Assembly: GCA_003663045.1 (NCBI GenBank)
Contig: QMZG01000009.1
Location: 1-16,212 of the forward strand
DNA from: Candidatus Altiarchaeales archaeon
GTDB taxonomy: Archaea > Altiarchaeota > Altiarchaeia > IMC4 > QMZM01
Reading direction: 5' to 3'
Length of the DNA stretch: 16,212 nt
This document shows, piece after piece, positions 1 to 16,212 of this stretch. The translations under genes and the position numbers were made by a program. The notes below the pieces were generated by a model that had not been told where the DNA came from, did not search any database, and was given only the letters and a program-made list of their open reading frames with translations. How positions within the stretch are numbered: the first letter of the stretch is position 1; each line of letters begins with the position of its first letter.

Positions 1-33
1 CAACATATATAGGTATGTTAGATTTTTTACGCT

Positions 34-53
34 AGAAATCCTAAAGGATTTCT
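34..53. terminator. Perfect 8-bp inverted repeat AGAAATCC-TAAA-GGATTTCT preceded by a T6 run (23-28). It may be an intrinsic-like terminator for a gene upstream of the window, or an operator.
   Basis: Seen directly: 34-41 AGAAATCC, loop 42-45 TAAA, 46-53 GGATTTCT is the exact reverse complement. The oligo-T at 23-28 is typical of archaeal termination signals. The position upstream of the virB3/4 promoter would suit either role. Confidence 0.25.
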
Positions 54-237
54 ACATAGCTATAATTATATTATGATAAAGAAGATAGATCTGAAAAAGT
101 TTGACAAGTTATCCACAGAGAAACAATACGAGAATTAGTTGGATAGAGAGTAGGTTATTTGAAAATATCTGTGATTATTACCTTTATTCTTATTTTAACT
201 GAATCTGATCTTCTGAAATATATCCCACAAAAAACAA

Positions 238-258
238 ATATTTATAGGAGTTTATATA
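238..258 (+). promoter_or_regulatory. TATA-like boxes (AAATATTTATA / TTTATATA), about 24-31 nt upstream of ATG 282. Candidate archaeal promoter giving a leaderless or short-leader virB3/4 mRNA.
   Basis: TTTATATA at 251-258 is centred about 27 nt upstream of ATG 282, which is the archaeal TATA-to-TSS spacing. GGGAGA at 274-279 could alternatively act as an SD. Confidence 0.3.
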
Positions 259-281
259 ATGTTGTAATTAACAAGGGAGAA

Positions 282-1160
282 ATGCCATATAAAATTCCCA
301 CTGACATAAGATATGAGGAAAGGTTATTTGGACCATTAACCGTGAAGCAATCCATATACGCCTTAGTAGCAGCTATTTTAATTCTCTATCTTATATTTTT
401 CTCCGGTTTAGAGTTTTATGTATACATCATACCTGTCTTTTTAGTAGCTATTCTGGCTATAGGCTTTATAATGTTCAATCTGGATATGTATCTCTTAAAT
501 TATCTCTACTATATTAAGGGGATGAAAGAGTCATCATGGATTTCACCCGCTGCAAGGAAGTTGATGGAGATTAGATCAATTAGAGCGGATGCGGTATTTT
601 TGAAGGACGGTCGCGTTCTTGGTGTGATAAAGGTAAAGCCCATTAACTTTGGGGTCCTGAGTAGAGAAGACCAAGATACGGTGATATATGGATTCTTAGA
701 ATTTATAAATTCATTGAGTTTTCCTATACAGATTGTGATGAAGTCTGTTAACCTTGATTTAAGTGATTATCTAGGAGCATTGAAGAGAAGGATTGTGCAA
801 AGAGATGATAAGATGGCTCTTGCCTATTATGAACATTTTTCAGAGTATATGTATGATTATATAAAGGCCAATAAAATTAATGACAGATTATTCTACATAA
901 TAGTTCCCGCCAAAAGGTTTGCAGATGAAAAGAAGACGATCATGAATCTGGAGGATAGATGTAAGGCGGTTATTGAAACCCTGGGTCTTTCGGGAATTAT
1001 TGCAGAAAGACTGGGTAATAGGCAACTTCTTAGCCTTTATTCATCCTATTTCACAGAGTCATTTAAATTAGATGAGGAATTTGTTTCGCCTATTACCATG
1101 TATAAAAGGATGTGGCATGAAGCACCTAAAAAGGTTTATTATGTAGAAGAGGAACTATAA
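282..1160 (+). CDS. VirB3-like membrane hairpin fused to the VirB4 N-terminal domain, i.e. the N-terminal part of a split T4SS VirB3-VirB4 ATPase. The ORF track starts it at TTG 159. ATG 282 is the more likely start.
   Basis: With ATG 282 the N-terminus reads MPYKIPTDIRYEERLFGPLTVKQSIYALVAAILILYLIFFSG...IPVFLVAILAIGFIMF. A short cytoplasmic segment, the 'LFxGLT' motif and two TM helices form the classic VirB3/TrbD/PrgI layout. The following stretch AVFLKDGRVLGVIKVKPINFGVLSREDQDTVIYGFLEFINSLSFPIQIVMKS matches the conserved start of the VirB4/TrbE N-terminal domain ('dGsl..v.r..g.d...s.ee.e.....l..ll..l'). ATG 282 has GGGAG 5 nt upstream and a TATA box at -27. The longer TTG start adds a hydrophobic 41 aa of uncertain reality. 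Confidence 0.7.
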   Translation: MPYKIPTDIRYEERLFGPLTVKQSIYALVAAILILYLIFFSGLEFYVYIIPVFLVAILAIGFIMFNLDMYLLNYLYYIKGMKESSWISPAARKLMEIRSIRADAVFLKDGRVLGVIKVKPINFGVLSREDQDTVIYGFLEFINSLSFPIQIVMKSVNLDLSDYLGALKRRIVQRDDKMALAYYEHFSEYMYDYIKANKINDRLFYIIVPAKRFADEKKTIMNLEDRCKAVIETLGLSGIIAERLGNRQLLSLYSSYFTESFKLDEEFVSPITMYKRMWHEAPKKVYYVEEEL

Positions 1161-1165
1161 TCAAA

Positions 1166-3481: not shown

Positions 3482-3496
3482 TTAACAGTTAATTAA
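3475..3496. repeat. Tandem direct repeat of 11 bp, CAGTTAATTAA x2, each containing the palindrome TTAATTAA. It overlaps the virB4 stop codon and lies 26-47 nt upstream of the SPFH ATG, so it is a probable promoter/operator element.
   Basis: Seen directly: 3475-3485 cagttaattaa and 3486-3496 cagttaattaa. TTAATTAA is TATA-like, and the second copy is centred about 28 nt upstream of ATG 3522. Confidence 0.4.
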
Positions 3497-3521
3497 GCTA
3501 ATTTATTAAATTTAATTTAAT

Positions 3522-4682
3522 ATGGCGTTGATACCATTGGGTGAGAAAGAGGCTGAAGGGGAGGTCTATGTCCCAGAGGAGAAAAAAACAGGGATAGATA
3601 TCATAGAAAAATTCATAGAAAAATGGAGGGATGGGATATTTACCATCCTCGTTATCGCTTTTATAACAGCAATTTTTATTCCAGATATATTCCTGGGGGA
3701 TATTGGGATTAATCTTAAGTTGATAATTTTTGTTATAATAATTTTTTTAATCATTAGGATATCAGTTGTAAGATTACTTGAGTATGAAAGAGCAGTTGTA
3801 TTCCGACTGGGTAAATTTCACAGGGTAGCTGGTCCGGGTTGGGAATTGATTTTTCCAATAGTGGAGAAGTTTGTGAGGACGGATCTGAGATTAAAGGTTT
3901 ATACCATAGAACCGCAGGAGATAGTCACAAAGGATAAGGTAAGATTCTTGGTCTCTCCGGAGATATTCATGTACGTTTCTAATCCAAAGGATGCGGTGAT
4001 AAATGTGGACAATTACGAGAAGGCAGTTCTTTCTTATGTAAATTCAGCCCTGACCCATGTGGGCGGTGATTCAACCTCCGATTACATAGTAGCGCATATG
4101 GATGATATAAGCGAGATGCTGGAGCACAGTGTTGAAAAAATATCCACATTACCGGGAAGGGAGTGGGGGGTAATTGTACCAAAAATTAAGTTGGGGTTCA
4201 TCAGATTTCCAGATGAGGTTCAGTCCGCTATGCATAAAAGGGTCGCAGCCGGGCAACTAAAGTTGGCGGCACATGAAAAGGCAGATGCTACTAAGATTGA
4301 AATAGACGCCATAAGAGAGGCTGGCTCAAAACTTACTGATCCAGCAATTACCTATCTGTACCTAGAAGCATTGGATAAGATAGCTAAAGGAAAAGCTACG
4401 AAGATGATATTGCCTCTAGAAATATCCAAGATTGCAGAGAGCATAACCAAGAGAACTGGTGCTTTACCAGAAACACCTGAGGTCAGTTTACCCAAAGATT
4501 TAATTCGGAAATATAAGGAGTCTGTGGATAGGTATGATAAAAAACTGAAGGAGATAGAGGATAAACTGGCTAAAAGGGAGATAAAAGAAAGGAAAGAAAA
4601 GTCAGAGAAAAAAGAAACTGGGGAAGAACTTAATGAATACAAGGAGAGGATTAGAGAGATAAAAAAGAGGATCGGTATATAA
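3522..4682 (+). CDS. SPFH / Band-7 (stomatin/prohibitin-like) membrane protein with an N-terminal TM anchor and a C-terminal K/E-rich coiled coil.
   Basis: N-terminal TM segments FTILVIAFITAIFIPDIF / LKLIIFVIIIFLIIRI are followed by the canonical stomatin signature VVRLLEYERAVVFRLGKFHRVAGPGWELIFPIVEKFVRTDLRLKVYTIEPQEIVTKDKV. The pattern 'V.EYERaVvfRlGk....PG...i.P..d.v..vdlr......p.q.v.TKD.v' is classic SPFH. The tail EIEDKLAKREIKERKEKSEKKETGEELNEYKERIREIKKRI is a coiled coil. Confidence 0.85.
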   Translation: MALIPLGEKEAEGEVYVPEEKKTGIDIIEKFIEKWRDGIFTILVIAFITAIFIPDIFLGDIGINLKLIIFVIIIFLIIRISVVRLLEYERAVVFRLGKFHRVAGPGWELIFPIVEKFVRTDLRLKVYTIEPQEIVTKDKVRFLVSPEIFMYVSNPKDAVINVDNYEKAVLSYVNSALTHVGGDSTSDYIVAHMDDISEMLEHSVEKISTLPGREWGVIVPKIKLGFIRFPDEVQSAMHKRVAAGQLKLAAHEKADATKIEIDAIREAGSKLTDPAITYLYLEALDKIAKGKATKMILPLEISKIAESITKRTGALPETPEVSLPKDLIRKYKESVDRYDKKLKEIEDKLAKREIKERKEKSEKKETGEELNEYKERIREIKKRIGI

Positions 4683-4853
4683 GGCAATGGCACTTTGACA
4701 TTAACTTTGTTAAAGGCGCGTTTGCGTCCCTTATGAGGACTAATGACACCTTGATTTACGCTTTGTTAGTAACACCGATGCTTAAATTCTCTTCATATTG
4801 AGGATATTAGTATTGATTAATTTGAATGAAATCTAAAGATTATAAAATCCAAA

Positions 4854-5126
4854 ATGGATGATAAAATCGATACACAGAATATCTACATCGATCCAGAGAA
4901 AAAATTTGTTACTATAAGAGTAAATCCAAGGATTTATAAGATTCATACTATTATGAACGCTGCGGATGAATTCATAGAGACGGCAGAATTGGTAATAGAC
5001 GGAGATCCAGAAAAGGAGATCATCGTCAAGATGATCCCAAAGAAGAAGGATCTGACCGAGGAAGAATTGCTAGAATATGCCTACAAATTTAACACTTATT
5101 TGATATCCCATAGTGCTACGAGATAG
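4854..5126 (+). CDS. Small hypothetical protein (90 aa), acidic, no TM. It sits in a 170-nt / 100-nt intergenic context, implying its own promoter.
   Basis: ORF MDDKIDTQNIYIDPEKKFVTIRVNPRIYKIHTIMNAADEFIETAELVIDGDPEKEIIVKMIPKKKDLTEEELLEYAYKFNTYLISHSATR. TATA-like TATAAAA at 4841-4847 and TTGATTAATTT at 4813-4823 lie upstream. No recognisable motif. Coding status rests on ORF length and codon usage similar to its neighbours. Confidence 0.5.
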   Translation: MDDKIDTQNIYIDPEKKFVTIRVNPRIYKIHTIMNAADEFIETAELVIDGDPEKEIIVKMIPKKKDLTEEELLEYAYKFNTYLISHSATR

Positions 5127-5194
5127 AACCTGGATTAATTCAACTGATTCTTATTAAAATTCTCAATCAGCAATAAAGCATTTAAATAGCTTCT

Positions 5195-5208
5195 CAAAAT
5201 ATATATCA
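5195..5208 (+). promoter_or_regulatory. TATA-like box AAATATATAT centred about 26 nt upstream of ATG 5227. Candidate leaderless promoter for the Mrr-PAP2 gene.
   Basis: Seen directly: 5197-5206 aaatatatat, ATG at 5227. The spacing is typical for archaeal leaderless transcripts. An additional TTTAAATA sits at 5181-5188. Confidence 0.35.
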
Positions 5209-5226
5209 AACATAACATGACATAAT

Positions 5227-6990
5227 ATGGACGACTTTGAAAGATTTTGGATGGAAAGGGAAAGAGAAGAACTGGAGATAGAACCGGAGAAACTTAGAAA
5301 GGTTCTATCGAAGATACTTAAAGAGTTTAATCTGGAGTTAAAATCAATTGAAGAAACCGAAGAGAAAGACCTGGTAGCTACATGCTTAGATAAATTGGGG
5401 AGGGAGGTAACATCCTTAATAAGAATTCGTGCCGATACCGAAGGGATCGAAAGGGATGATGTAGAGGACTTTTATGAGGATATGGTAGAGAAAAGGGCTG
5501 TAGCTGCTATCTTTATCACTACCTCTTATTTTTTTAAGGATGCCAAGGATTTTGTAGAAGGGCTTCCCATAAGGCTGGTTGATAGAACACAGTTATCAGA
5601 AATTATAGCTGAGATCGAGGCCATAAAGGTTGAGAAGGCATTTGTTTCTGGGATGAATGACTCACAGGTGGTGAAATATTTCCAAAAAAAGACAAAGGGG
5701 AGGGTATTAGGTAGATTTGGAATGCCTGAGAATATCGAAGAGATAGATCGCAGGTATCTACCCATGGGGTTTTTCAGTCTCAAGAAAATCGAAGAAAACG
5801 TTGAAAGGAGAAAATTTGCATACATAGATCTCAGCAGTGGCGATCTCTTCTATATAGATGAAGGACGTATAAAGAAGGATGATATCATAAAGAATATTCT
5901 TAATCTTCCTCCAGAATCCAGGGAACACCTCATGGATTTGATTGAGCATGGAGAACTGCCTCATGAACATATAGATGGGAAGTATTTGCTCATACTGAAA
6001 AAAAGAGGGTTATTAGGAGAGTATGAAGAGGGTAGAGGGGGTGGAATCCTCAGTACTATGGTAAATGGAATCATGAGTTTAGTGATGATAATAATCGATA
6101 CAGCAGGGGAATTTATTGGCATTCCAAGATCAGAACATGTTCCAAAGGGGGGTACTGCTCAACCAAAGAGAGTTAAAGCGAGAGTCAATATCCCCATCTT
6201 TGATCAAGCCTATAATCTGGAGAATTTTATGGAGGTTTCAAATGCCAGTGAGGAATTTGATCCGGATCCCATGAAGTATAAACCAGAGGAGGTAGAGGAT
6301 ATTCTGAGGAAAATCACCGGGTATGAGGTAAAATTCGAGAATATGGTTTATTTTCCCTATTACCTGTGCAAATATTCTGGTCCAAGGGGGGAGAGGTACA
6401 GAAGGTTATATTCAGTGAAATTTAAAGAATTTTTTCCGAGGCCGGGAACATATAATGTATTGTATCATATTATAGACAAGTTTCCAGAATTGCCTTATCT
6501 CATACTGGCTGCTCTTTATATCCATTTTAATATCAGTGAAACGGAAAAATTAATGCATGTATTCTCTTCTTCCTTTCTTTTCCTGATTATATGCGTTTTC
6601 ACAGGGACGTTGTTAAAGGCTATCTTCAAGACGGAAAGAGTAACACCCTACTACGGTGTATCAGTTTTTAGATACGGATTTCCATCCATGCACAGTTTAG
6701 CCTCCATCGGTGCTATAGGGTTTGTATATTTTATAGAACCCATGGGGCCTTTACTTTCACTAGTACTGGTACCAATAGGTCTGCTCTATGTCTATTCCAG
6801 AATCAAGATAGGCGCTCACAGCGTGACCGATGTTATTGGGGGGGCAATCATTGGCCTTATCATGGGGATAATCTCTGGTATGCATCTACTGAAGATTCAT
6901 CTTCCATATCCTTTGGAGTTGATATCCACCACACTTTTTGTTATCATGCTATTTATCTTTATTATAATTAGAATTAAGTATATACACTAA
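5227..6990 (+). CDS. Fusion protein with an N-terminal Mrr-type restriction-endonuclease-fold domain (Mrr_cat-like), a central linker/wHTH-like region, and a C-terminal polytopic PAP2-superfamily (type 2 phosphatidic-acid phosphatase / haloperoxidase fold) membrane domain.
   Basis: N-terminus: LSKILKEFNLELKSIEETEEKDLVATCLDKLGREVTSLIRIRADTEGIERDDVEDFYEDMVEKRAVAAIFITTSYFFKDAKDFVEGLPIRLVDRTQLSEII. This follows the Mrr_cat pattern (D..D core, 'QcKr'-like LIRIR, 'gi.vTTs.Ft.eA..fa....i.LidgeeL'). Note R replaces the usual catalytic K. The C-terminal TM bundle carries the three PAP2 motifs: KAIFKTERVTP (KX6R-like, aa 464-474), FPSMHS (PSGH-type, nt about 6682-6693), and YSRIKIGAHSVTD (SRX5HX3D, nt 6796-6831). 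Confidence 0.8.
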   Translation: MDDFERFWMEREREELEIEPEKLRKVLSKILKEFNLELKSIEETEEKDLVATCLDKLGREVTSLIRIRADTEGIERDDVEDFYEDMVEKRAVAAIFITTSYFFKDAKDFVEGLPIRLVDRTQLSEIIAEIEAIKVEKAFVSGMNDSQVVKYFQKKTKGRVLGRFGMPENIEEIDRRYLPMGFFSLKKIEENVERRKFAYIDLSSGDLFYIDEGRIKKDDIIKNILNLPPESREHLMDLIEHGELPHEHIDGKYLLILKKRGLLGEYEEGRGGGILSTMVNGIMSLVMIIIDTAGEFIGIPRSEHVPKGGTAQPKRVKARVNIPIFDQAYNLENFMEVSNASEEFDPDPMKYKPEEVEDILRKITGYEVKFENMVYFPYYLCKYSGPRGERYRRLYSVKFKEFFPRPGTYNVLYHIIDKFPELPYLILAALYIHFNISETEKLMHVFSSSFLFLIICVFTGTLLKAIFKTERVTPYYGVSVFRYGFPSMHSLASIGAIGFVYFIEPMGPLLSLVLVPIGLLYVYSRIKIGAHSVTDVIGGAIIGLIMGIISGMHLLKIHLPYPLELISTTLFVIMLFIFIIIRIKYIH

Positions 6991-8987
6991 TCATCATCTC
7001 TTCCAAATTCCTCTTCTTTCCTTTCTCTGGTATCTATACGGACATCAATAATGCTTCTCAAACCATCTTCTGTGTTAAACACAATAATTCCACTGTATAA
7101 TCTTCTTTCTATATCCTCTTTTGTAGTGATCACCATTTTTATTATCTTCTCTTCACCCCTCTCCAATCTGAATCTATTTTCCTTATAGTTTATAAATATT
7201 CCAGCTGTAAGTAGTTCTTCATCATATACTATAACCCTTGAGAATGAATGATCCTCATCGTTTCTTAAGGCGATTTCTACCAATCTGGTCTCACCGGGCT
7301 GAACATTCACAGTAAGGGATGGTGGTACCGGTTTTTGTGGCAGGGTTGCCGTGACTATCCCCTTTCTCCTCTTCCTGGGAACCTCGGATGGAGCACGAGA
7401 ACGTATCTCATCCATCATGTATGGCTTTGCCTTCTCTTCTGAGACAACCCTGAATCCGTATTCATCCCCGATATATTTTTCTATTGAGGTCTTTCTCTCC
7501 CTCGCTGCTTTGACAAGTAATTCATAAAGATTTTCATTTCTCTGAATCTTTTCTATGGGTATCTCGCCCTTGATATTCGCCATACCTCTTAATGCGTCCT
7601 TTAGGGTTGCCCTGATTGGCCTAATTGGAGCATGAGAGGGTATCTTCTCTTCTCTTGGCTTAACCCTCTTAGTGACTCCGGGTTTGATGTAAGGAACTCC
7701 CACTCTTACACCTTTTTTAGAAGTAATTTTGAATCCGTATTGTATATTAACAAATTCCTCTACTGACATCCTTTTCTCCCCTGCAACACGAATTAGTGAG
7801 TTATGAAGCCTCTCATTTTTTTGGATTTCCTCCAGGGATATTTCACCCCTGATGTTGGCCATCTTTTTTAATGTAGAACCAATCTCCTCTCTGGACAACT
7901 CTCCTTTCTCAACGACCCTCTCATAGCCCCTCACACCAACCGCTGCTCTTGGTTCTTCTTCGGGCTTTTCTTCCTCTTTTTTCTCAAGTTCTATCTCAGG
8001 TTTCTCGAAGAATACTATCATCGGCGCCAGAGACTCGATAAAGATTACTGAGATGACAGCAAATGCACCAAACCAATTCATTAACCCGAATATGATCAAT
8101 GGCGATATTATCAGTAGAAGGGCCCCAGAGATATTTACCAGATCAGAGATTTCCGGTATGAGGGTAGTAAGAATCTGACTACCTACAGCTATTATTACCA
8201 ATGCAAGGGCATATCCTACCGGAAGAAAGATCCAGAAGAGCAGTTGCTTTATGATTATCTTTCCTATGTTCTTTGTAAGATAGAACAAACTGAGGAATAT
8301 TGCAAATGGAAAAAATATGATTAAAAAGATTAAAAGGATGTATCTAGCAACTAAGATGGCAAATATACCTAAAGTTAAGATAAATGTGAATATCAAAAAG
8401 GGTATACTTATTGCTATATCAATCCAGATAAAATCTACCGTCCTATAATTTAGATAATCTATGGCATTCTTATATGTAATCCCTATATCTAAGGGCCCCT
8501 GGGATAGAATACCCCTAGTTAGAACCTGCGATACATCGAGTAGTAACTGCATTATATGTAGGGAAAGTGAAATGATAACCATACCCACCAACAGCCTTAA
8601 CATCATGGACTTTGCCCTTGATCTGCCTCTTGGTGATCCTGAAAAGAACATCAGATAGATCCCTGTCAGTACTATGGCTGCGATATAGAATGGCTCCAGG
8701 ACTTTGACGAAGTAACCCCCAATATCTATTATCATCGGGTCTCTTAACGGAATTTCTTCCAAGAGATATGCATGAAGGTTATCATAGATTTCATCCTTCA
8801 TAACATCTATCTTGCCCCAGATCATTCCCAAGAATGTCAACCTTCTTGATAGTTCTGAAAAGAATTTTAGTATGGCATCGGCAGTAGACTCAAGAAATTC
8901 ACCAAATTCTGGCGGAATTGCGTATGCTACAGATGATAAGAGTAATGATACCGCGAATATAAATATTATAAATGTTCTACATTTCAT
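6987..8987 (-). CDS. Polytopic membrane protein, paralog 5 of 5 (VirB6/TrbL/TcpH/CedA-like by architecture). It has a roughly 340-aa hydrophilic C-terminal extension containing an internally duplicated roughly 65-aa module. It is the last gene of the minus-strand operon.
   Basis: Signal peptide MKCRTFIIFIFAVSLLLSSVAYA. Family motifs VLEPFYIAAIVLTGIYLMFFSGSPRGRSRAKSMML and FFPFAIFLSLFYLTKNIGKIIIKQLLFWI, with at least 6 TM helices. After aa about 325 comes an acidic linker EKPEIELEKKEEEKPEEEPR. Two repeats follow: (aa 371-435) STLKKMANIRGEISLEEIQKNERLHNSLIRVAGEKRMSVEEFVNIQYGFKI and (aa 460-523) ATLKDALRGMANIKGEIPIEKIQRNENLYELLVKAARERKTSIEKYIGDEYGFRV. A predicted beta-rich domain and a DDD tail end the protein. 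The stop overlaps the convergent Mrr-PAP2 stop. Confidence 0.8.
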   Translation of the reverse strand: MKCRTFIIFIFAVSLLLSSVAYAIPPEFGEFLESTADAILKFFSELSRRLTFLGMIWGKIDVMKDEIYDNLHAYLLEEIPLRDPMIIDIGGYFVKVLEPFYIAAIVLTGIYLMFFSGSPRGRSRAKSMMLRLLVGMVIISLSLHIMQLLLDVSQVLTRGILSQGPLDIGITYKNAIDYLNYRTVDFIWIDIAISIPFLIFTFILTLGIFAILVARYILLIFLIIFFPFAIFLSLFYLTKNIGKIIIKQLLFWIFLPVGYALALVIIAVGSQILTTLIPEISDLVNISGALLLIISPLIIFGLMNWFGAFAVISVIFIESLAPMIVFFEKPEIELEKKEEEKPEEEPRAAVGVRGYERVVEKGELSREEIGSTLKKMANIRGEISLEEIQKNERLHNSLIRVAGEKRMSVEEFVNIQYGFKITSKKGVRVGVPYIKPGVTKRVKPREEKIPSHAPIRPIRATLKDALRGMANIKGEIPIEKIQRNENLYELLVKAARERKTSIEKYIGDEYGFRVVSEEKAKPYMMDEIRSRAPSEVPRKRRKGIVTATLPQKPVPPSLTVNVQPGETRLVEIALRNDEDHSFSRVIVYDEELLTAGIFINYKENRFRLERGEEKIIKMVITTKEDIERRLYSGIIVFNTEDGLRSIIDVRIDTRERKEEEFGRDDD

Positions 8988-10110
8988 TTTCTATTCTTTT
9001 CCCGCTCTCAAAGTATGCCGTTGTCATTGCTGCAGGCTTCAGGAAGATGGCCGATATCAGAGCAAGAGAACTTATCCAGCTCATTATTCCCATGGCTATT
9101 AATGGGGCAAGGATTAACATTAAAAATCCAGAGAATACCACAAAGGTGTTTAAATCCAGCAATACCCCTGTGGCAGGTTCCGGGATAGAGAATATGCTAT
9201 TATAGGCAATCCAGGTAACCAGGAGTATTATAGCATCGATAACTGGGACAAATATCCAGATAATTGTTTGATTAAGAAGGATTCTCCCAACCCTTTTGGT
9301 AGCAAAGAAGGAATAAAGCAGGATCGTAAATGGGAAGAATATTGTTAGGAGAATCACCATAAAATATCTGATCGCCAGCACCATGAGAACACCGGCCGGT
9401 AGGAGAATGAGTAGGGCTAAGAATGGAAGTCCAATAAAGATCTCAAAAAATGTCACTACCAAGAAGTATTTTATAAAGAATTCCTTAGCCAACATAAACA
9501 TCTCAACGTTTATGGGAGATTCCGGGCTGGGAATTGATAAAAGAACTGATGTAAGATAGTGGGAGGTCTCTAAGAGCATCTCTATTATGGGTAACGTTAA
9601 TGTGATAATCCCAAGCCCGAGAATCAGTTTTATGAGGGTGGATTTTGCCCGTGCCCTGCCCAGTGGCGATCCGGAAACGAAAAGGAGATATACTGAGGTT
9701 ATCAGTATGGCAAGCGCATAAAATGGTTGAAGTATACTGATAAAGAGATTTAGGATCCCCAAAACTGCAGGGGCCCTTAACAGTGCTGGTGTATCCTTTA
9801 TTGTATTTCCCTGAAAAAGATCCCTCTGGTATATGAAGGGGATGAGGTTTTCAGAATATATCTTCATTAGCGCATCAATTCTATCTGCGATATAAAAATA
9901 GAAATCTATCCGCCTCGTTATCTCCATGCCCATCTTTGGGTACTCTCTCGAGACCTCATCCATCAGATCCTTCAACTTTGATGCTAACGACGGTTCAAGT
10001 GCGGGGGAAGCATGCTGTGCCGTGACATGGATGATACTAACCGTAACCAGAAGCATGACAATTGCTAATCTTCCCATTATTTTTTCTTTACCTTTTCCAT
10101 TCATTTTCAA
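8977..10110 (-). CDS. Polytopic membrane protein, paralog 4 of 5 (VirB6/TrbL-like candidate). The track start is TTG 10110. ATG at 10104 (MNGKGKEK...) or 10077 (MGRLAIV...) is the more likely start.
   Basis: Signal peptide or TM GRLAIVMLLVTVSIIHVTAQHA. Family motifs ILQPFYALAILITSVYLLFVSGSPLGRARAKSTLIKL and FFPFTILLYSFFATKRVGRILLNQTIIWI, with multiple TM helices. It abuts the upstream paralog with no gap. GGGGG lies 8-12 nt upstream of ATG 10104. Confidence 0.8.
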   Translation of the reverse strand: MKMNGKGKEKIMGRLAIVMLLVTVSIIHVTAQHASPALEPSLASKLKDLMDEVSREYPKMGMEITRRIDFYFYIADRIDALMKIYSENLIPFIYQRDLFQGNTIKDTPALLRAPAVLGILNLFISILQPFYALAILITSVYLLFVSGSPLGRARAKSTLIKLILGLGIITLTLPIIEMLLETSHYLTSVLLSIPSPESPINVEMFMLAKEFFIKYFLVVTFFEIFIGLPFLALLILLPAGVLMVLAIRYFMVILLTIFFPFTILLYSFFATKRVGRILLNQTIIWIFVPVIDAIILLVTWIAYNSIFSIPEPATGVLLDLNTFVVFSGFLMLILAPLIAMGIMSWISSLALISAIFLKPAAMTTAYFESGKRIENEM

Positions 10111-11064
10111 TTAAGGCAAAAACCCCCTGAATAATCTTACAAATATGAAGGGGGTAAGCATTAACATCAACAAACCGGCCAATTCCATGATGAATTTTAA
10201 TCCAGTAGGAACGATAAAGCTCGTTATTAAATCTGTGAGATTCATTCCTATCGCTATTATAACGAGCACGAATGCCATCGCAGCCTGAGCTAATGTCCAG
10301 AGAAGTGTTTGTTCCAGTAGCAATCTTCCCATTCCCCGGGAGGGTAAAAAGGAATAGAGAAGGATTGTAAATGGCAATATCATGGAGAGGATAGCTACCA
10401 TGTAGAACCTCAATTTTAGGATAAGGAATATCCCCTCCAAAAGAGCATAAGGGATAAAGAGGAGGGGAATTCCGGCCCTCTCCACGCCCAGTGACCAGCC
10501 ACTGGCACTGTGCGACATTATATGCCTGCCCATGTTGAGTATATATTCCGTTGCATGTATAAAAGGATCATTCTTGTTTACCGGAGCCAATGATAGAATA
10601 TTTAGGGTAATTGCCTCCGAGATACCAAAGAATATCATCAGAATATAGGGCGAAACGGATATGATTGCAATGCCGATAATCAACAGTAATAGGGAGGATT
10701 TTGCACTGGCTCTCTTTTCTGGTGAGCCAGAAAAGAATATCAGGTAGATTCCAATGAGGATTATTACTGTAACATATATTGCCTGTAAAATGGAGATGAA
10801 GTAATCCATAATCTTCTTGGTATTTGATTCCAGTATTGAGGGATTCTCCAGTATCAGATCATCTATATTCCTAAGTGTTTCTATCTTTTCCATTATCAAC
10901 CTTTCGTAATTTTCAGATACCTTTTCTCTAAGGAATGCCTCCGCTGCCTCTTCGGTCAGTGGATAGATGATCCCCGATACCGAATTTGACAAAAACAGCA
11001 ATATTACAATAACTATCAATAATGAAATTCCTCTGATTTTTGGGTTGATTGAATCTTTTTTCAT
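10111..11064 (-). CDS. Polytopic membrane protein, paralog 3 of 5 (VirB6/TrbL-like candidate).
   Basis: Signal or TM LLIVIVILLFLSNSVSG. Motifs ILQAIYVTVIILIGIYLIFFSGSPEKRASAKSSLLLL and ILPFTILLYSFLPSRGMGRLLLEQTLLWT. C-terminal ...FVRLFRGFLP. The start ATG (11062-11064) overlaps the TGA of the upstream paralog (ATGA-type coupling). GGAGA lies 8 nt upstream. Confidence 0.82.
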   Translation of the reverse strand: MKKDSINPKIRGISLLIVIVILLFLSNSVSGIIYPLTEEAAEAFLREKVSENYERLIMEKIETLRNIDDLILENPSILESNTKKIMDYFISILQAIYVTVIILIGIYLIFFSGSPEKRASAKSSLLLLIIGIAIISVSPYILMIFFGISEAITLNILSLAPVNKNDPFIHATEYILNMGRHIMSHSASGWSLGVERAGIPLLFIPYALLEGIFLILKLRFYMVAILSMILPFTILLYSFLPSRGMGRLLLEQTLLWTLAQAAMAFVLVIIAIGMNLTDLITSFIVPTGLKFIMELAGLLMLMLTPFIFVRLFRGFLP

Positions 11065-11990
11065 GGTAAAAATCTCCTAACCATTGTTATTAGCATTATG
11101 GGTGATATGATTACCACCAGAAATGTTGATATACCTATTATAGTTCTTAGATCCCCGCTAAAGCCTAAAATAGTGATTCCCATATTTGCAGTCACTATAA
11201 GCAAGGCAATTATTACCTGGAGGAATGTCCACAATATGGTCTGTTCCACTATAAACCTGCCAATGTCCCTCGTTATGTTAAATGTATACAGGAAGATGCC
11301 TATGGGGAATATCAATGTGAAGATCAAAAGAAGGAGATATCTCAGAGTAAGAACAGAAAAGATACCTATTATCATGAAGAATATGAATAAAAGGAAGAGG
11401 TGACCCCCTTCGAATGTGGTTAATGTGGATGCAGTAAAGATTCTCACAAGATCATTTATTGTGTCCAGGAATATCCTCCCTATCCCCACTGGACTCTTAT
11501 CCAGTATATCCTTAGACAATTCATAGGAAACATTTGAAATCAGTTGCAGTATGGGGAAGGTGAGGGAAACAATTACCATACTGGCAATCAACTTGGGAAA
11601 GAGTAATTTCGCTTTTCTTCTACCCTTTGGCGATCCGGAAAGAAACATTAGGTAGATTCCAGTAATTAATATTGCCATAACATATAATGGTTCTAAGACG
11701 GTGATGAAGTATTCTATTATATGATTTATCAGATGATCATCAAGTGGGGGATTCATCAGGATTAAATCACGCAGACTATCAAAGATTTCCAATAATCCAT
11801 GACCTACCGGTTTTCCAATAAACGTCCCATGGAGCAGGTAATAGATAAGCAGGATGAATATCCCCCTGAATTTTAATTCGATTGCTTCATGCTTCACGGC
11901 CATTTCCCCAAACCATTCTGAGGTTATTGAGGGGATTAATATGATGCAGATGCATACCCCCATTATCAATTTTTTATTTATTTTTCTCAT
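11061..11990 (-). CDS. Polytopic membrane protein, paralog 2 of 5 (VirB6/TrbL-like candidate).
   Basis: Signal or TM LIMGVCICIILIPSITSE. Motifs VLEPLYVMAILITGIYLMFLSGSPKGRRKAKLLFPKL and FPIGIFLYTFNITRDIGRFIVEQTILWT. C-terminal ...MVRRFLP. 4-nt overlaps at both ends (11061-11064, 11987-11990). Confidence 0.82.
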   Translation of the reverse strand: MRKINKKLIMGVCICIILIPSITSEWFGEMAVKHEAIELKFRGIFILLIYYLLHGTFIGKPVGHGLLEIFDSLRDLILMNPPLDDHLINHIIEYFITVLEPLYVMAILITGIYLMFLSGSPKGRRKAKLLFPKLIASMVIVSLTFPILQLISNVSYELSKDILDKSPVGIGRIFLDTINDLVRIFTASTLTTFEGGHLFLLFIFFMIIGIFSVLTLRYLLLLIFTLIFPIGIFLYTFNITRDIGRFIVEQTILWTFLQVIIALLIVTANMGITILGFSGDLRTIIGISTFLVVIISPIMLITMVRRFLP

Positions 11991-12919
11991 GGTAAGAAAT
12001 CCCTCAAAAAGCTTACGGTAGCTATAGGGACCACTATCAGGGCTATAATTCCTCCCAATTCCAACAAAATCAATACCTCACGCGTCAACAAGGAGGAAAA
12101 CACCACGATTATGGTAGCTATTGAGGTTAATGCTATTGCCTCCGTTACCTGTACAGAAATCCAGAGCAGTGTTTGTTCCATCATCCTTCTGCCTATCCCT
12201 CTGGTAGGCATGAAGAGATAGAGGAATATCGTCAATGGGAATACTATGGTAAATAGAGCAACGACGATATACCTTGAAAATATAACAAACAGGAGTGCAG
12301 AAATAATTATCAGAGAAAGAAACAGAAATGGTACCGATGCCTCTGAAGAATACCATGTGATATTATGAAATTTTGACATAAGATAATCTATTGGATTTAT
12401 GTCTTTATCTAAGGGTAGTAGAATGCCTACAGGATCACCCGGTCCCTGAGATATTATACCATCCGATAGGGTTTCAGAAAAACTGAAAATCACACTCATT
12501 ATATACGGTGAGATAGCAATTAATACCATTGCTATAATAATTCCCGGTAATAAAGATTTTATCTTTGCCCTGATTCCGGGCGAACCAGAAAAAAATATCA
12601 TATATATCCCACTGAAGATTATGGCAAAGACAAACAATGGCTCCATGATGGTCACAATATATCTGGTAATACCCAAGACATCTGGATTCATTGGGTTCGG
12701 ATTCAGTAGCAATATCTCCACAAAATGATCCCTGCATATATCCATGGCATATACTACAAGATCCTCACCAATCTTGTTAAGATTCATTCTCAGAAGAAAA
12801 TCTAATAGTACCTTAACTGCTGCCGCTTCCCCAATGAAAGCTGACGATGATGATGCGAGGAATAAAACTACTATAACCGGGAATGTTAATTTAAACAAGA
12901 TCTTCCTTATTGACTTCAT
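11987..12919 (-). CDS. Polytopic membrane protein, paralog 1 of 5 (VirB6/TrbL-like candidate).
   Basis: Signal peptide LTFPVIVVLFLASSSSAFIGEAAA. Motifs IMEPLFVFAIIFSGIYMIFFSGSPGIRAKIKSLLPGI (nt about 12553-12594) and VFPLTIFLYLFMPTRGIGRRMMEQTLLWI. C-terminal ...SFLRDFLP. Start ATG is at 12917-12919, 12 nt after the upstream gene. Confidence 0.82.
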   Translation of the reverse strand: MKSIRKILFKLTFPVIVVLFLASSSSAFIGEAAAVKVLLDFLLRMNLNKIGEDLVVYAMDICRDHFVEILLLNPNPMNPDVLGITRYIVTIMEPLFVFAIIFSGIYMIFFSGSPGIRAKIKSLLPGIIIAMVLIAISPYIMSVIFSFSETLSDGIISQGPGDPVGILLPLDKDINPIDYLMSKFHNITWYSSEASVPFLFLSLIIISALLFVIFSRYIVVALFTIVFPLTIFLYLFMPTRGIGRRMMEQTLLWISVQVTEAIALTSIATIIVVFSSLLTREVLILLELGGIIALIVVPIATVSFLRDFLP

Positions 12920-12931
12920 TTTTCTAAAGGG

Positions 12932-14038
12932 TTATTTTCTGATGAATTTGAAATATCCCGCTACCAAGATTATCACAGAGATTAAGAGTATCAGGTAATT
13001 GAGCCATTCCACTTTCATGCAATCTGGATCTTCTCCACTCTTACAGTCTGGATCACATTTTCCATCCTCTACCTTATCACAGTAACCATCCTCTCCTCCA
13101 GAAGCACAGTCTTGAGGACAATTGAGATAATTTTCAATACCCATCTCACAGATGTTGTCGTTATTGCAGATACAATCTATATCCCCCTCCCTATGACAGT
13201 CGGGGTCACATATCCCATCTCTTATTCCATCACAATAATTGTCCCTGGAGCCAGAACAGTCCTCTGGACAATTCCAGTAGTTTTCACCATGGTCACAGAC
13301 ACCATTTTTATTGCAGGTTTCTATTACGATAACCTCTATCGTATCTTTTACGGAGATATTCTCAAAATCGATAACCTCAAGGGTAATCTTATGAATTCCA
13401 GCAGAGAGATTATCAATCCTCGTTATATCTTTATCTAATTCCTTCCCATCCAATTTCCAGATAAGGGTATATGGCTTTTTACCACCATAGACAGAGGGAA
13501 TCAGGTTGATGAAATCCCCCCTTAGGTATGTAGTATTCTTTGGCGATAGGATAGATACTGTTAAAGGAATTTTCTTTATTACTACCAGAGAGATATCCTC
13601 CCTTACCTCCAAACCGGTACTATCCCGGACCTTGAGGGTAATCTCATGCGTGTTCACAGACAGGTTCTTTATAGTGAATTCTCTATCTCTTCCTATAACC
13701 CCGTCTATATTCGATACCCATTCAAATCTGTAGGGTGGTGTGCCACCAAATACAAACGCCTCAAAGTTTATAGGACCTTCTTCATAGATGTGTGGATAAC
13801 CAAATGGAGATATAATAGATGCCGTGAGTTTTTGGGTTATACCCTCGTCCCCTACTAATTCATCCAATGGATCTGGAGTAATTTTAATATTTTCATGACT
13901 TGTATTATCTGGATCTAATTCGGGATATGCGGGATGAGAGTGGTAGGAATGGCATCTCTCACAGACTCCCCCAGCGTAATAAATTAATGCAAGCAGCATT
14001 ACTACTATTTCTATTCCGGTTGTCATAATCCTCCTCAT
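12932..14038 (-). CDS. Secreted/surface protein. It has an N-terminal signal-anchor, two PKD/Ig-like domains ('GGxPPYxFxW' type), a duplicated Cys/Asp-rich module pair (candidate Ca-binding, TSP3/EGF-like), and a C-terminal TM anchor.
   Basis: N-terminus TGIEIVVMLLALIYYAGG. PKD-like signatures FVFGGTPPYRFEWVSNIDG and YGGKKPYTLIWKLDGKEL. Sequons include NLS, NTT and NIS. The Cys-rich array at aa 242-340 (nt 13019-13315) is built as [CNKNGVCDHGENYWNCPEDCSG + DNYCDGIRDGICDPDCHREGDIDC] then [CNNDNICEMGIENYLNCPQDCASG + DGYCDKVEDGKCDPDCKSGEDPDC]. C-terminal TM WLNYLILLISVIILVAGYF followed by KFIRK. Confidence 0.8.
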   Translation of the reverse strand: MRRIMTTGIEIVVMLLALIYYAGGVCERCHSYHSHPAYPELDPDNTSHENIKITPDPLDELVGDEGITQKLTASIISPFGYPHIYEEGPINFEAFVFGGTPPYRFEWVSNIDGVIGRDREFTIKNLSVNTHEITLKVRDSTGLEVREDISLVVIKKIPLTVSILSPKNTTYLRGDFINLIPSVYGGKKPYTLIWKLDGKELDKDITRIDNLSAGIHKITLEVIDFENISVKDTIEVIVIETCNKNGVCDHGENYWNCPEDCSGSRDNYCDGIRDGICDPDCHREGDIDCICNNDNICEMGIENYLNCPQDCASGGEDGYCDKVEDGKCDPDCKSGEDPDCMKVEWLNYLILLISVIILVAGYFKFIRK

Positions 14039-16212
14039 TTTCTACCCATGAATTCATCCCACATTTCATAGATATCTAATCTACCTTCCCTGAACCATCT
14101 ATATGAAAAGGCTAAGAGGATCAGTATCATGAAGAGTAGGAGAACCTCCGGGGAAAGGAACCACCAGAATCTGCTTAGAGAGTAGACATTTACGTAAGTG
14201 GTATCTTCACTTGGCGTATACCTGCTATGATACAAACATCTAACCCTTGTGCTCTGGTCTGTGGTTGTGAATTTAAACTCGGCTTTTCCATCCATATCTG
14301 TTGTCACCTTTGCAGAGATGCCATACGCTTCCAATTCTATGGTTACCTCTTCATATGGAATTCCCTTACCGGTAAGAACATCCAAGAGCGTAACATGGAT
14401 GATAACCTCATCTCCAGGATTTACAGATTCTGGTATTGCTTCACATATCACTCTGGATGCATTCCTCATCGTAACATTTATATAGATGTTGGCATAGGGT
14501 CTTGTTTCGGTACGTGGCGGAAACAATGGAAAGGTCTGAGTAGAAAGATTATCCCTGAAGTGGATAAATATGGTGATATTTGCATTTTCAAGGTCAAAAT
14601 ATGGAGTGCCACAGCAGCATTGTTGTGAATCCCAATCAGCACTACAAGATAGATTACAATCCTCTATACATGACTCATTATCTGCTTTAATACAGTGCAC
14701 ACATCTTTTGAGTGACGTGTTTAGAGGACAATTACATTCAGAAATAGAAATCTGGTTTCTTGCTTTACAAAACTCCTGGCAGTTATCTCCGAGAGAGGAG
14801 TTATACCAGCTTAGGTTCCTGTACTTGATCAAAGGATAGGGAAAATTCATGGCTTCAAAATCAAGGATATATCTGCCACTCACCTCTTCAACAACCTCAT
14901 GCTTGAGGGTTTTATTATGGCAGATCTTCCATATGTTATGACCCGACATATCGCTGTAGGTGTATGGCCCATCTCCGACCTCAGCGGTGCATAGACGAGA
15001 ACCGGTAGTGCTATTCAATTTTGTCGCATCGTCTGAATCGCGATTTACAGCCCACACATTTCCATCGAAGTCTACGGTCACACCTATGGGACCTGTTCCA
15101 ACACCATATCTGCCCAGAACCTCACAGTTAGAACCATTTACCTTAATTACCTCATCGGATGTATAGTCTGCAACCCACGCGTTATTATCCCAATCCACAA
15201 CTATGCCCCTGGTATAACCGGCAATCCTATTTTTACATATAACGGCCCCGGTTGTTCCGTTCACCTTGTATACATTACCTGATCTCGCACCACCCAACCA
15301 GATGTCTCCATTGCTGTCTATACCTATGCCGTACGCATCGCCACCTATGCGATAACCTCCAGGGGGCGATACAACAACGCCATCTGATGTTCTTATCTTG
15401 AAGAGCCTGTCATCCTTATCATAACCATTACATATTATCCATACATAACCATGACAGTCATAGACTCCACCGTAGGGATATAATCCAACTGGAATTGGAG
15501 ATGAGTCTATGGGACATGTTGGATTTCTTGCTGGATCACCTATAATACATTCACCCGTAGTTCCATTCAATTTCCATACATTATTATCCAGAGCATTGCC
15601 CACCCAGATATTGTTGTCATCATCTGCCGCTATTGGCCTGGGACCGCGTCCAACGGGATAGGTATCTATAACCTTGCATGTATTGCCATCCAATCTGGTT
15701 ACATCGTTTGAGTTTCTGTTAGCTACCCACACCTCACCCTTGAGGTCTACCGCTGTTCTTGATGGATTTGATCCAACATCATATGTACATACCTCCTTAC
15801 AATCATGTGTTCTTACCTTGCTTACCGTGTTGTCTTTAGAATTGGCAATGAAGATGTAGGTTGTATTAAATGTTTTCTTACTTATATCGTGAGTGACCTC
15901 CCCCCTAAGGTCTCCAGTAAAAACCGGATTCGTTCCAAGTTGATCCATGAGTTTTATATTAGAAACCTCCTCTGTCTCGAGATCAACAAAGTCAAAGTAG
16001 TAGCCTTCTTCCTCGTGGAATGTCCTATCGGAGGTACATGGAAATTTGTAGCTGTGTCCCTTTGGAGGAAGACAAACGCAGTCCGTTCTCTTGTATTTAT
16101 TGCCATTTTCATCTATACAGGTGACATCTGTTATATCATCCTCAGGACATGTACAATCTGCGGGACATATCTTCTTACACTGCTCTGGATAGTTAAAGTA
16201 AGAACTTTCATA
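14035..16212 (-). CDS. Large surface protein (partial, with its 5' end beyond the window edge). It has an N-terminal Cys-rich region, a YVTN/NHL-type beta-propeller repeat domain, a second Cys-rich region, and a C-terminal TM anchor. It is heavily sequon-decorated and so probably N-glycosylated.
   Basis: The frame is open from the track's Met (15948) up to nt 16212 (...CKKICPADCTCPEDDITDVTCIDENGNKYKRTDCVCLPPKGHSYKFPCTSDRTFHEEEGYYFDFVDLETEEVSNIKL-MDQLG...). The true start is therefore upstream of the window. Repeats such as YDVGSNPSRTAVDLKGEVWVANRNSNDVTRLDGNTCKVIDTYPVGRGPRPIAADDDNNIWVGNALDNNVWKLNGTTGECI match the roughly 40-residue YVTN/NHL beta-propeller blade pattern ('G.P.giavd..gn.WVan...n.V.k.d'). 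It contains more than 15 N-x-S/T sequons. C-terminal TM FWWFLSPEVLLLFMILILLAFSYRWF. Its stop overlaps the start of the downstream gene (14035-14038). Confidence 0.8.
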   Translation of the reverse strand, partial: YESSYFNYPEQCKKICPADCTCPEDDITDVTCIDENGNKYKRTDCVCLPPKGHSYKFPCTSDRTFHEEEGYYFDFVDLETEEVSNIKLMDQLGTNPVFTGDLRGEVTHDISKKTFNTTYIFIANSKDNTVSKVRTHDCKEVCTYDVGSNPSRTAVDLKGEVWVANRNSNDVTRLDGNTCKVIDTYPVGRGPRPIAADDDNNIWVGNALDNNVWKLNGTTGECIIGDPARNPTCPIDSSPIPVGLYPYGGVYDCHGYVWIICNGYDKDDRLFKIRTSDGVVVSPPGGYRIGGDAYGIGIDSNGDIWLGGARSGNVYKVNGTTGAVICKNRIAGYTRGIVVDWDNNAWVADYTSDEVIKVNGSNCEVLGRYGVGTGPIGVTVDFDGNVWAVNRDSDDATKLNSTTGSRLCTAEVGDGPYTYSDMSGHNIWKICHNKTLKHEVVEEVSGRYILDFEAMNFPYPLIKYRNLSWYNSSLGDNCQEFCKARNQISISECNCPLNTSLKRCVHCIKADNESCIEDCNLSCSADWDSQQCCCGTPYFDLENANITIFIHFRDNLSTQTFPLFPPRTETRPYANIYINVTMRNASRVICEAIPESVNPGDEVIIHVTLLDVLTGKGIPYEEVTIELEAYGISAKVTTDMDGKAEFKFTTTDQSTRVRCLYHSRYTPSEDTTYVNVYSLSRFWWFLSPEVLLLFMILILLAFSYRWFREGRLDIYEMWDEFMGRK

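Follow-up and report, generated by a model that had tools for sequence, protein, structure and literature searches.

Two Cys-rich membrane proteins at the head of a VirB6-like gene array are candidate contact subunits of a type IV secretion-derived machine in Altiarchaeota

Introduction

Which parts of a secretion-like machine face outward from an archaeal cell, and what might they contact? The question is raised by a stretch of 16,212 nucleotides (nt) from a Candidatus Altiarchaeales archaeon (assembly GCA_003663045.1, contig QMZG01000009.1, positions 1 to 16,212 of the forward strand; hereafter the window), in which two minus-strand genes for Cys-rich proteins lie directly upstream of an array of genes for membrane proteins resembling VirB6 of type IV secretion systems (T4SS). 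One of the two genes encodes a very large protein, here called the giant, and the other a smaller protein with Ig-like and Cys/Asp-rich domains, here called PKD-Cys. A preliminary description made from the letters of the window proposed that both are surface recognition or adhesion components of a secretion channel, possibly acting in mate-pair formation. We compared the window with related loci (L-numbers) and homologous proteins (P-numbers), the closest locus being L001, a JGI contig with 98.6-99.5% DNA identity to the window. We favour the view that both proteins act outside the cell as contact subunits of a chromosomal machine derived from a T4SS, a proposal read from sequence that we regard as evenly poised between right and wrong.

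Results and discussion

The two candidate surface-protein genes and the membrane-paralog array form a single unit

The gene for the giant (14035-16212, minus strand) is cut by the window edge. Its frame remains open up to nt 16212, and the corresponding gene of L001 (4404-10004) encodes 1,866 amino acids (aa), the final 725 of which match the window fragment at 99.7% identity. What the window contains is thus no more than the C-terminal 725 codons and the stop, and the 637-aa propeller protein that might be read from it is an artefact of the window edge, a correction from 637 to 1,866 aa that matters to annotators of the locus. The operon accordingly begins beyond the window; on the full contig the giant is the first gene of its strand, and a spacer of 77 nt divides it from a divergent gene. 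The PKD-Cys gene is listed as an open reading frame of 368 codons (12932-14038, minus strand). Its true start is likely the ATG at 14026, which follows a GGAGG and would give 364 aa; an independent assembly calls the protein at 364 aa, and the orthologs start at the equivalent position. The exact 368-aa product is not on record; P0001 is 98% identical to it.

The preliminary description took these two genes and the membrane-paralog array to be co-transcribed, and the spacing of the genes bears this out. The stop codon of the giant and the ATG of the PKD-Cys frame overlap in the sequence ATGA (14035-14038), and the PKD-Cys stop is separated from the ATG of the first VirB6-like paralog by 12 nt (12920-12931, minus strand). 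A spacer of this length has no space for the strong terminator or promoter at 12919-12932 that would have divided the unit, and no terminator-like site was found on the minus strand between 12900 and 16212. The genes further downstream in the string overlap by 4 nt. They encode four VirB6-like paralogs (310, 309, 317 and 377 aa) and a 666-aa TrbL-like protein (6987-12919, minus strand), which were recognised from profile matches and synteny.

The gene order is kept across Altiarchaeota

The order giant, PKD-Cys, four paralogs and long TrbL-like protein is kept in at least eight distinct Altiarchaeota loci (window/L001, L002/L012, L003/L004, L005/L015, L006/L007, L013, L014 and L016), with the genes overlapping or nearly abutting. 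Identity among the syntenic PKD-Cys homologs ranges from 39 to 98%, and two of the loci (L012 and L016) come from one metagenome-assembled genome (MAG). Every full-length PKD-Cys homolog with readable flanks lies between the gene for a giant carrying a von Willebrand factor A (VWA) domain and the paralog array. A scenario contemplated earlier, in which homologs never occur with the array, is thus contradicted at each of these loci. In the more distant Altiarchaeota loci L035 and L070, a Cys-rich giant stands directly before VirB6-like paralogs, and PKD-Cys is missing from that position.

On its other side the giant is always flanked by divergent genes, which encode a fusion of T4SS_pilin and PKD domains, with or without a papain-like protease, and a protein of ~700 aa (about 525-870 aa); in most loci the divergent set also includes a protein with DUF333 and the Cys/Asp-rich cassette described below. 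Pfam yielded nothing significant for the upstream ~704-aa protein. Just past the right edge of the window, L001 carries a fusion of this kind (2524-4326, minus strand), divergent from the giant gene and 600 aa long, with matches to VirB2-like T4SS_pilin (32.5 bits), PKD (69.6 bits) and the papain family Peptidase_C1 (117.9 bits). Its orthologs keep the pilin and PKD domains, often without the protease. The fusion could represent a pilin that displays a protease.

The giant carries an exchangeable middle module between conserved flanks

We next consider how conservation is distributed along the giant. Relative to the window-type protein, identity among the eight giants starts at 0.5-0.7 along residues 480-1260, falls to 0.15-0.30 over residues 1261-1680, which comprise a beta-propeller and a second Cys-rich block, and is back to 0.47-0.59 in the Ig-like domain, transmembrane (TM) helix and tail. 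The propeller is missing from the giants of L002, L003, L005 and L006 and present in that of L014. In its place stands a different domain of ~340 aa (L002, L005 and L006) or ~160 aa (L003), and no Pfam family was found in the alternative middle modules of either the L002-type or the L003-type giants, for which a ThuA/GATase-like fold is a conjecture. Replacement of the middle by unrelated domains between conserved flanks is as expected for a recognition module. A role of this kind is supported by the identity of 0.15-0.30 in the propeller region amid flanks of 0.5-0.7, as compared with 63-99% for VirB4 across the phylum. As judged from the alignments, the pattern fits a scaffold of which one end appears to be held by a conserved partner and the other displays an exchangeable module. 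In most pairwise comparisons no gene of the operon is less conserved than PKD-Cys (39-52% versus about 47-69% for the paralogs), L003 being the exception.

The block directly upstream of the variable module (15874-16212) is the part that matches the distant giants of L035 and L070. Within it, a stretch of 193 nt (16005-16197) shows ~90% DNA identity to L003/L004, whose giants are just 42% identical overall at the protein level. This conserved stretch bordering the variable module could serve as a recombination anchor.

Domain structure of the giant

The full 1,866-aa giant consists, in order, of a signal peptide, two Big_7-like repeats, Cys-rich stretches, a VWA domain, the variable middle module, an Ig-like domain, a TM helix and a cytoplasmic tail. 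The VWA domain lies outside the window; it was matched at residues 837-989 of the L001 giant (30.4 bits, PF00092 cut-off 23.8) and scores 45-54 bits against the same cut-off in the giants of L002 and L003. The strand VVLVSDxSGSM, a canonical first VWA strand resembling a metal ion-dependent adhesion site (MIDAS), is common to all eight giants (residues ~1005-1015 in L001). It lies C-terminal of the Pfam VWA match, whose own N-terminal motif is DDTTGT, and the MIDAS arrangement is ambiguous; the giants could contain a permuted VWA domain or a second, unrecognised one.

The window fragment, read along the minus strand, begins with the most conserved block of the giant, which is Cys-rich and directly upstream of the variable module (15874-16212, fragment residues 1-113; identity 0.56-0.70 among 8 orthologs). 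The beta-propeller module follows (14881-15873, fragment residues 114-444), delimited by profile matches and repeats, and then a second Cys-rich and sequon-rich segment that is poorly conserved (14593-14880, fragment residues 445-540; identity 0.19-0.30). A membrane-proximal Ig-like beta-sandwich is predicted at 14188-14592 (fragment residues 541-675) from weak Big_1 and CarboxypepD_reg matches and is present in all orthologs at an identity of 0.47-0.59. Hydropathy places the TM helix at 14089-14172 (fragment residues 681-708), and the protein ends in a 17-residue cytoplasmic tail (14038-14088) with the motif WFxEGRLDxYxMWDExxGRK, which is near-invariant in the alignment of eight orthologs.

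The middle module had been described as a YVTN/NHL-like beta-propeller, which profile searches support with matches that lie around or under the family cut-offs. In Pfam it matches Vgb_lyase (E=2e-9, 36.9 bits, cut-off 50), NHL (20.1 bits, cut-off 20) and YNCE (17.4 bits, cut-off 27.1), and in NCBIfam TIGR03866 (E=4e-11) and the YVTN family TIGR02276 (E=4e-5, 23.5 bits, cut-off 27.85). Six clear D..G.vWv repeats recur 41-55 residues apart, and half-repeats at the N- and C-terminal ends could close a split seventh blade, making a roughly 7-bladed module probable. The nearest relatives of the propeller, at 34-39% identity, are bacterial (Myxococcota/Deltaproteobacteria and the Candidate Phyla Radiation, CPR) and carry the families Vgb_lyase, NHL and SGL; two CPR proteins (P0221 and P0225) join a T4SS pilin domain to this type of propeller.

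We also considered the giant as a subunit of the hamus, the grappling hook of Ca. Altiarchaeum. The published hamus subunit is soluble, has a mass of 97 kDa, is S-layer-like at its N-terminus and lacks an anchor at its C-terminus (PMC4460559). Compared by description, the 1,866-aa, TM-anchored, Cys-rich giant is unlike it, and this assignment was rejected.

Domain structure of PKD-Cys

PKD-Cys opens with an N-terminal signal/anchor segment (13958-14038, minus strand as for the following features), seen by hydropathy and as a predicted helix at residues 3-22 and kept in orthologs. It is followed by two Ig-like beta-sandwiches of PKD/SprB/Big_7 type (13322-13825, residues 72-154 and 160-239), supported by AlphaFold2, Foldseek and ortholog matches, each of which contains a GGxxPYxxxW motif (GGTPPYRFEW and GGKKPYTLIW). 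Beyond the cassette, hydropathy, alignment and model place a C-terminal TM helix and a short basic tail (KFIRK) at 12938-13006, the hydrophobic helix spanning residues 340-368 by hydropathy and 345-367 by AlphaFold2. The AlphaFold2 model, built on an 81-sequence alignment, has a mean pLDDT of 85.5 and consists of an N-terminal helix, a disordered linker (residues 25-70) and the two beta-sandwiches at a pLDDT of 90-98, in addition to the cassette. In a Foldseek comparison of the whole model with PDB, the matches were to generic tandem FnIII/Ig domains only, with E down to 5e-11.

No Pfam or NCBIfam family matched the PKD-Cys protein of the window at E<=0.1. The Ig region searched alone reached 21.5 bits for Ig_3 (cut-off 30), and Big_7, K319L-like_PKD and SprB likewise stayed below threshold. 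Among the orthologs, P0008 (32.3 bits) and P0009 (36.3 bits) exceed the PKD (PF00801) cut-off of 23.5, and P0010 exceeds that of SprB. Because of the Ig-like model and these ortholog matches, the earlier label "PKD-like" appears acceptable as a statement on fold and clan. The motifs and the fold agree with it; the window protein itself falls short of the Pfam thresholds.

In most PKD-Cys orthologs a Cys follows immediately after the hydrophobic core of the signal segment ([GA]-C, lipobox-like; columns 25-35 of alignment A1), and the window protein reads GGVC at this position. Lipid modification of PKD-Cys in addition to its C-terminal TM helix is possible.

Topology and composition of the two proteins

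Both proteins have a C-terminal TM helix by hydropathy, as had been noted before. The tail-anchored topology suggested at the same time did not hold, since N-terminal signal segments are present in both (in the small protein and in the full giant); the combination indicates type I membrane proteins. The dense Cys content claimed for the pair was likewise recovered, with 18 of 368 residues in PKD-Cys and 33 of 725 in the giant fragment (4.6-4.9%) versus 0-0.6% (0-3 Cys each) in the other nine proteins of the window. The claim of many sequons applies to the giant fragment, in which 15 were observed against 6.7+-2.2 expected from shuffles; PKD-Cys displays a mild excess only (5 against 2.2+-1.4). 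All sequons of both proteins fall between the signal sequence and the TM helix. Both proteins are probably disulfide-bonded and N-glycosylated.

The Cys/Asp-rich cassette is a widespread juxtamembrane module

Between the Ig-like domains and the TM helix of PKD-Cys lie two tandem 49-aa units, each with 8 Cys and rich in Asp (13172-13315 and 13019-13168, minus strand; residues 242-340), in whose alignment all 8 Cys are matched. These units correspond exactly to the duplicated two-part cassette reported at 13019-13315 in the preliminary description. Half A reads C-x(3-5)-G-x-C-x(3-6)-E-N-Y-x-N-C-P-x-D-C and half B reads S-G-x-x-D-x-Y-C-D-x(3)-D-G-x-C-D-P-D-C-x(4)-D-x-D-C; across homologs, the 16 Cys and many of the Asp of the double cassette are invariant. 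In the PKD-Cys model its ~100 residues have a pLDDT of 83-93 and no regular secondary structure.

That the cassette could not be matched to a named archaeal domain was confirmed. Searched alone against Pfam and NCBIfam it returned no family even at E<=10, and together with a 19-sequence profile it produced only chance-level matches (semaphorin, SAM synthetase) among PDB sequences. With EGF-like, thrombospondin type 3, LDL-receptor class A (LDLa) and MopE-type repeats it shares being short, disulfide-rich, Asp-rich and extracellular with little regular secondary structure. Kinship with EGF-like, thrombospondin type 3 or LDLa modules was rejected, because no profile or structural similarity emerged from the Pfam, NCBIfam and PDB comparisons; the proposed resemblance to Ca-binding EGF/TSP3 modules was thus not substantiated.

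A search of 1.84 billion cluster representatives with the cassette profile retrieved 1,274 members at E<=1e-3. More than 100 proteins with 1-3 full units occur in Altiarchaeota, Aenigmatarchaeota, Woesearchaeota, Nanohaloarchaeota, Micrarchaeota, Iainarchaeota and some Archaeoglobales, where the cassette is mostly attached to other ectodomains, often DUF333 and often with Thr-rich linkers between. A TM helix starts within 30 residues of the last unit in 103 of 119 homologs (median gap 2 residues), and in 88 of these 103 it forms the extreme C-terminus; an N-terminal hydrophobic segment is present in 104 of 120 cassette proteins. This distribution identifies the cassette as a generic juxtamembrane module of DPANN/Altiarchaeota surface proteins rather than one specific to the apparatus. 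It is read most economically as a rigid juxtamembrane stalk that would be locked by disulfides and may bind Ca, both properties being judged from composition only. The earlier proposal that the two proteins are surface recognition or adhesion parts is upheld as far as their predicted extracellular, adhesin-like character is concerned (Ig-like domains, VWA, propeller, sequons and Cys), and set aside for the cassette as a specialised binding module. As a mark of membrane-anchored ectoproteins across DPANN, the 49-residue cassette is useful for annotation and for prediction of surface proteomes.

Some 8 kb away on the same contig, a DUF333 gene has a cassette (L001 1701-1817) with 88.9% DNA identity to the second cassette unit of PKD-Cys (13019-13135). 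The two genes are otherwise far less similar, a contrast suggestive of gene conversion or an exchange of modules in the recent past. In one cassette protein, P0045, an outer-membrane beta-barrel end (OMP_b-brl, E=9e-10) takes the place of the TM helix, which would be curious in a lineage with two reported membranes.

The T4SS context looks chromosomal

Across more than 100 Altiarchaeota clusters VirB4 keeps an identity of 63-99%, and the contigs that carry it reach 1.56 Mb. In L088 and L089 the genes for VirB4, PrgI and small VirB2-like pilins stand among housekeeping genes (FtsZ, the ribosomal protein L39e, IF5A and aminoacyl-tRNA synthetases), and in one MAG the VirB4 scaffold (L088) differs from that of the giant/PKD-Cys operon (L013). 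In L089, proteins of 1,665 and 682 aa, whose N-terminal parts are homologous to the window paralogs, are encoded directly upstream of PrgI-VirB4, which ties the paralog family to the ATPase. The best plasmid relatives of VirB4 are CD1110-family proteins of Firmicutes and Actinobacteria at 27-33% identity. Neither relaxase, coupling protein (VirD4/TcpA type) nor integrase was found in the window or in the 10-kb flanks of L001-L006, L088 and L089, and PKD-Cys has no relatives in 72,556 plasmids or in IMG/VR.

Mate-pair formation is consequently left unsupported, because VirB4/VirB3 lie among housekeeping genes away from the operon in other Altiarchaeota and no relaxase or coupling protein was seen in the stretches read. 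By analogy, the locus resembles the chromosomal, relaxase-less T4SS of Patescibacteria (PMC12102498) and the Ced/Ted systems (PMC9905601) more than it does a conjugative plasmid.

A proposed arrangement of the contact subunits

According to the reading we favour, both proteins would be exported via their signal peptides and held in the cytoplasmic membrane by a single C-terminal helix. The membrane part of the machine would be the VirB6-like array of five proteins whose genes follow directly, powered by the adjacent VirB3/VirB4. The giant would act as a scaffold of Ig-like repeats and VWA that displays the exchangeable middle module, a propeller in this lineage, and its near-invariant TM helix and cytoplasmic tail would dock it to the machine. 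The lineage-specific module may then contact the target, whether another cell, a symbiont, matrix or a mineral surface. PKD-Cys, kept in fixed proportion by translational coupling, would raise its two fast-evolving Ig-like domains on the stiff Cys/Asp stalk and serve as a partner or co-receptor of the giant.

Several points weigh against this arrangement. Its functional statements are all drawn from sequence. VirB4/VirB3 adjoin the operon in window-type loci only and occupy a separate scaffold in one MAG, so that the link to T4SS rests on VirB6/VirB2-like paralogs whose Pfam/NCBIfam matches are weak. The propeller and the alternative modules could be enzymes instead of binding domains. Finally, Ca. 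Altiarchaeum is reported to have a double membrane (PMC4460559), and proteins anchored in the inner of two membranes may never reach the cell surface.

Two membranes are also the starting point of an alternative in which both proteins form an envelope-spanning stalk or scaffold that carries a T4SS-like channel or pilus across the inter-membrane space, the role of VirB8/9/10 in diderm bacteria. Besides the double membrane reported for Ca. Altiarchaeum (PMC4460559), the strict one-to-one synteny with the VirB6-like array, the invariant TM helix and tail of the giant and a Pfam scan that found no VirB8/9/10 homologs in the window are consistent with such a role, and a rigid juxtamembrane cassette rich in disulfides would make a suitable fixed-length spacer. 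We nevertheless consider it unlikely, given that a purely structural scaffold would not be expected to have a module of 330 aa replaced by unrelated domains from one close relative to the next, nor to be the fastest-evolving gene of its operon. The combination of VWA, Ig-like domains and propeller is, moreover, typical of adhesins, and the cassette occurs on many unrelated ectoproteins, including those of DPANN lineages not known as two-membraned.

The two proteins might instead be mating-pair adhesins of a conjugative mobile element which, by analogy to PrgB, would aggregate donor and recipient for DNA transfer. Their position at the head of a channel operon recalls prgA/B/C in pCF10, and VirB4 is closest, at 27-33% identity, to the CD1110-type VirB4 of monoderm plasmids. 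The occurrence of the operon in two diverged copies within one MAG (L012 and L016), an Mrr-like nuclease fusion beside the locus and the ending of contigs from three assemblies just upstream of the PrgI-like gene would also fit a mobile element. Set against these observations are the lack of relaxase, coupling protein and integrase in the window and the 10-kb flanks read, the location of VirB4/PrgI among housekeeping genes at 63-99% identity phylum-wide, as is typical of core chromosomal genes, and the missing PKD-Cys relatives in the 72,556 plasmids and IMG/VR; we find this account quite improbable. We give still less credence to a third account, by which unrelated surface enzymes or nutrient binders merely neighbour the membrane genes, the propeller being a lyase or hydrolase and the alternative modules other enzymes. 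The best family of the propeller is indeed virginiamycin B lyase, a divergent neighbour encodes a papain-like protease and the cassette is common to many proteins outside any T4SS context. The Vgb_lyase match, however, remains at 36.9 bits under a cut-off of 50, and chance neighbourhood is difficult to reconcile with gene order, overlaps and copy number that are kept in at least eight loci down to 39% identity, with a giant-paralog link that persists in distant lineages, or with the conserved cytoplasmic tail.

The contact-subunit reading can be extended further, to a point that we regard as speculative and distinctly unlikely as a whole. By this extension, a phylum-wide chromosomal T4SS-derived contact machine would use the giant as a programmable recognition subunit, with its module exchanged by recombination at 16005-16197 and deciding which partner cells are engaged, be they biofilm kin or an episymbiont such as Huberarchaeota. 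The 8-Cys, Asp-rich juxtamembrane domain, previously undescribed, would be a general anchor of surface proteins.

Relation to known systems

T4SS operons that open with adhesin-like surface proteins have precedents. The T4SS operon of the Enterococcus plasmid pCF10 begins with the surface adhesins PrgA, PrgB and PrgC, after which come VirB6-, VirB3- and VirB4-like channel genes. As in the window, anchored adhesin-like surface proteins thus head the operon of a monoderm (MPF-FATA-like) T4SS. Neither protein of the window, however, has sequence or domain homology to PrgB or any PrgB-related Pfam match, and the anchor is a C-terminal TM helix instead of LPXTG/sortase. The locus also differs from pCF10 in being chromosomal-looking, without relaxase or coupling protein, and in having a giant with VWA, propeller and swappable module. 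TcpC, which the preliminary description had paired with PrgB as a model, is a VirB8-like channel part and not known as an adhesin, so that of the two comparisons the one to PrgB survives, as an analogy. A further analogy is offered by PilY1/PilC, the tip-associated adhesins of bacterial type IV pili, which like the giant combine a VWA-type domain and a beta-propeller in one large protein of a filament machine. The giant differs from them in lacking a match to their Pfam family, in its domain order and in its C-terminal TM anchor, and the propeller is optional among giants.

The chromosomal T4SS of Patescibacteria/CPR (PMC12102498) shares with the Altiarchaeota locus a monoderm-type VirB4, VirB3/PrgI, T4SS_pilin (PF18895) and the lack of a relaxase. 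Both lineages are uncultivated and have reduced genomes, and the location is chromosomal in both. The present system is unlike it in being archaeal and in having a five-fold VirB6-like paralog array preceded by giant VWA and PKD-Cys proteins; a term search of the text of PMC12102498 found no mention of such surface proteins and a single mention of DPANN. The Ced/Ted DNA import systems (PMC9905601) are likewise domesticated, chromosomal, T4SS-derived archaeal machines with VirB4-, VirB6- and VirB2-like parts, and their VirB6-like protein, compared by description, has an N-terminal pilin-like region as do the window paralogs. They differ in belonging to Crenarchaeota, and the word adhesin is absent from the text of PMC9905601.

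In the literature that could be searched, no account of a T4SS-like system in Altiarchaeota or of the two proteins turned up. As judged from the comparisons above, what appears new is an archaeal chromosomal system with a giant VWA protein that carries a swappable module and a partner with a domain absent from Pfam-A, NCBIfam and PDB. Should the contact-subunit reading be true, it would show which parts of a secretion-like machine face outward in an archaeal phylum that is globally abundant and uncultivated and fixes carbon in the subsurface, and the swappable module would be a concrete candidate for the recognition of partners, biofilm mates or symbionts.

Other genes of the window

The nearest relatives of every window protein tested are from Candidatus Altiarchaeota MAGs. 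Five genes lie on the plus strand, encoding a PrgI/VirB3-like protein (159-1160; PrgI 32.7 bits, cut-off 27), a VirB4-like ATPase (1166-3481; P-loop_TraG 88.8 bits, AAA_10 58 bits, DUF87 51 bits), a Band7 protein, a 90-aa open reading frame and a fusion of an Mrr-type restriction endonuclease (Mrr_cat) with a multi-TM PAP2 phosphatase (5227-6990; 45.7 and 35.2 bits). The fusion gene, which stands between the VirB4 module and the paralog operon, is kept in identical or near-identical contigs (L001 and L008).

The minus strand carries one tightly packed gene string that converges on the plus-strand genes. Within the paralog array, the 317-aa protein matches T4SS_pilin (PF18895, 28.4 bits, cut-off 26.6), the match to pLS20_p028 of NCBIfam is weak (22.7 bits against a cut-off of 150) and so is the TrbL_3 match of the long TrbL-like protein; among the VirB3/VirB6/VirB2-type parts, thresholds were passed only by the PrgI and pilin-domain matches. 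The 666-aa TrbL-like protein (6987-8987) has a cytoplasmic C-terminal half with a duplicated ~50-residue motif (MANIRGEISLEEIQKNERLH... and MANIKGEIPIEKIQRNENLY...), followed by a beta-rich C-terminal domain; neither the motif nor this domain matched a family.

At the left end of the window (1-158), the contigs of three independent assemblies (L008, L009 and L011) all stop 90-220 nt upstream of the PrgI-like gene. These shared ends hint at a repeat or a strain-variable junction at this position.

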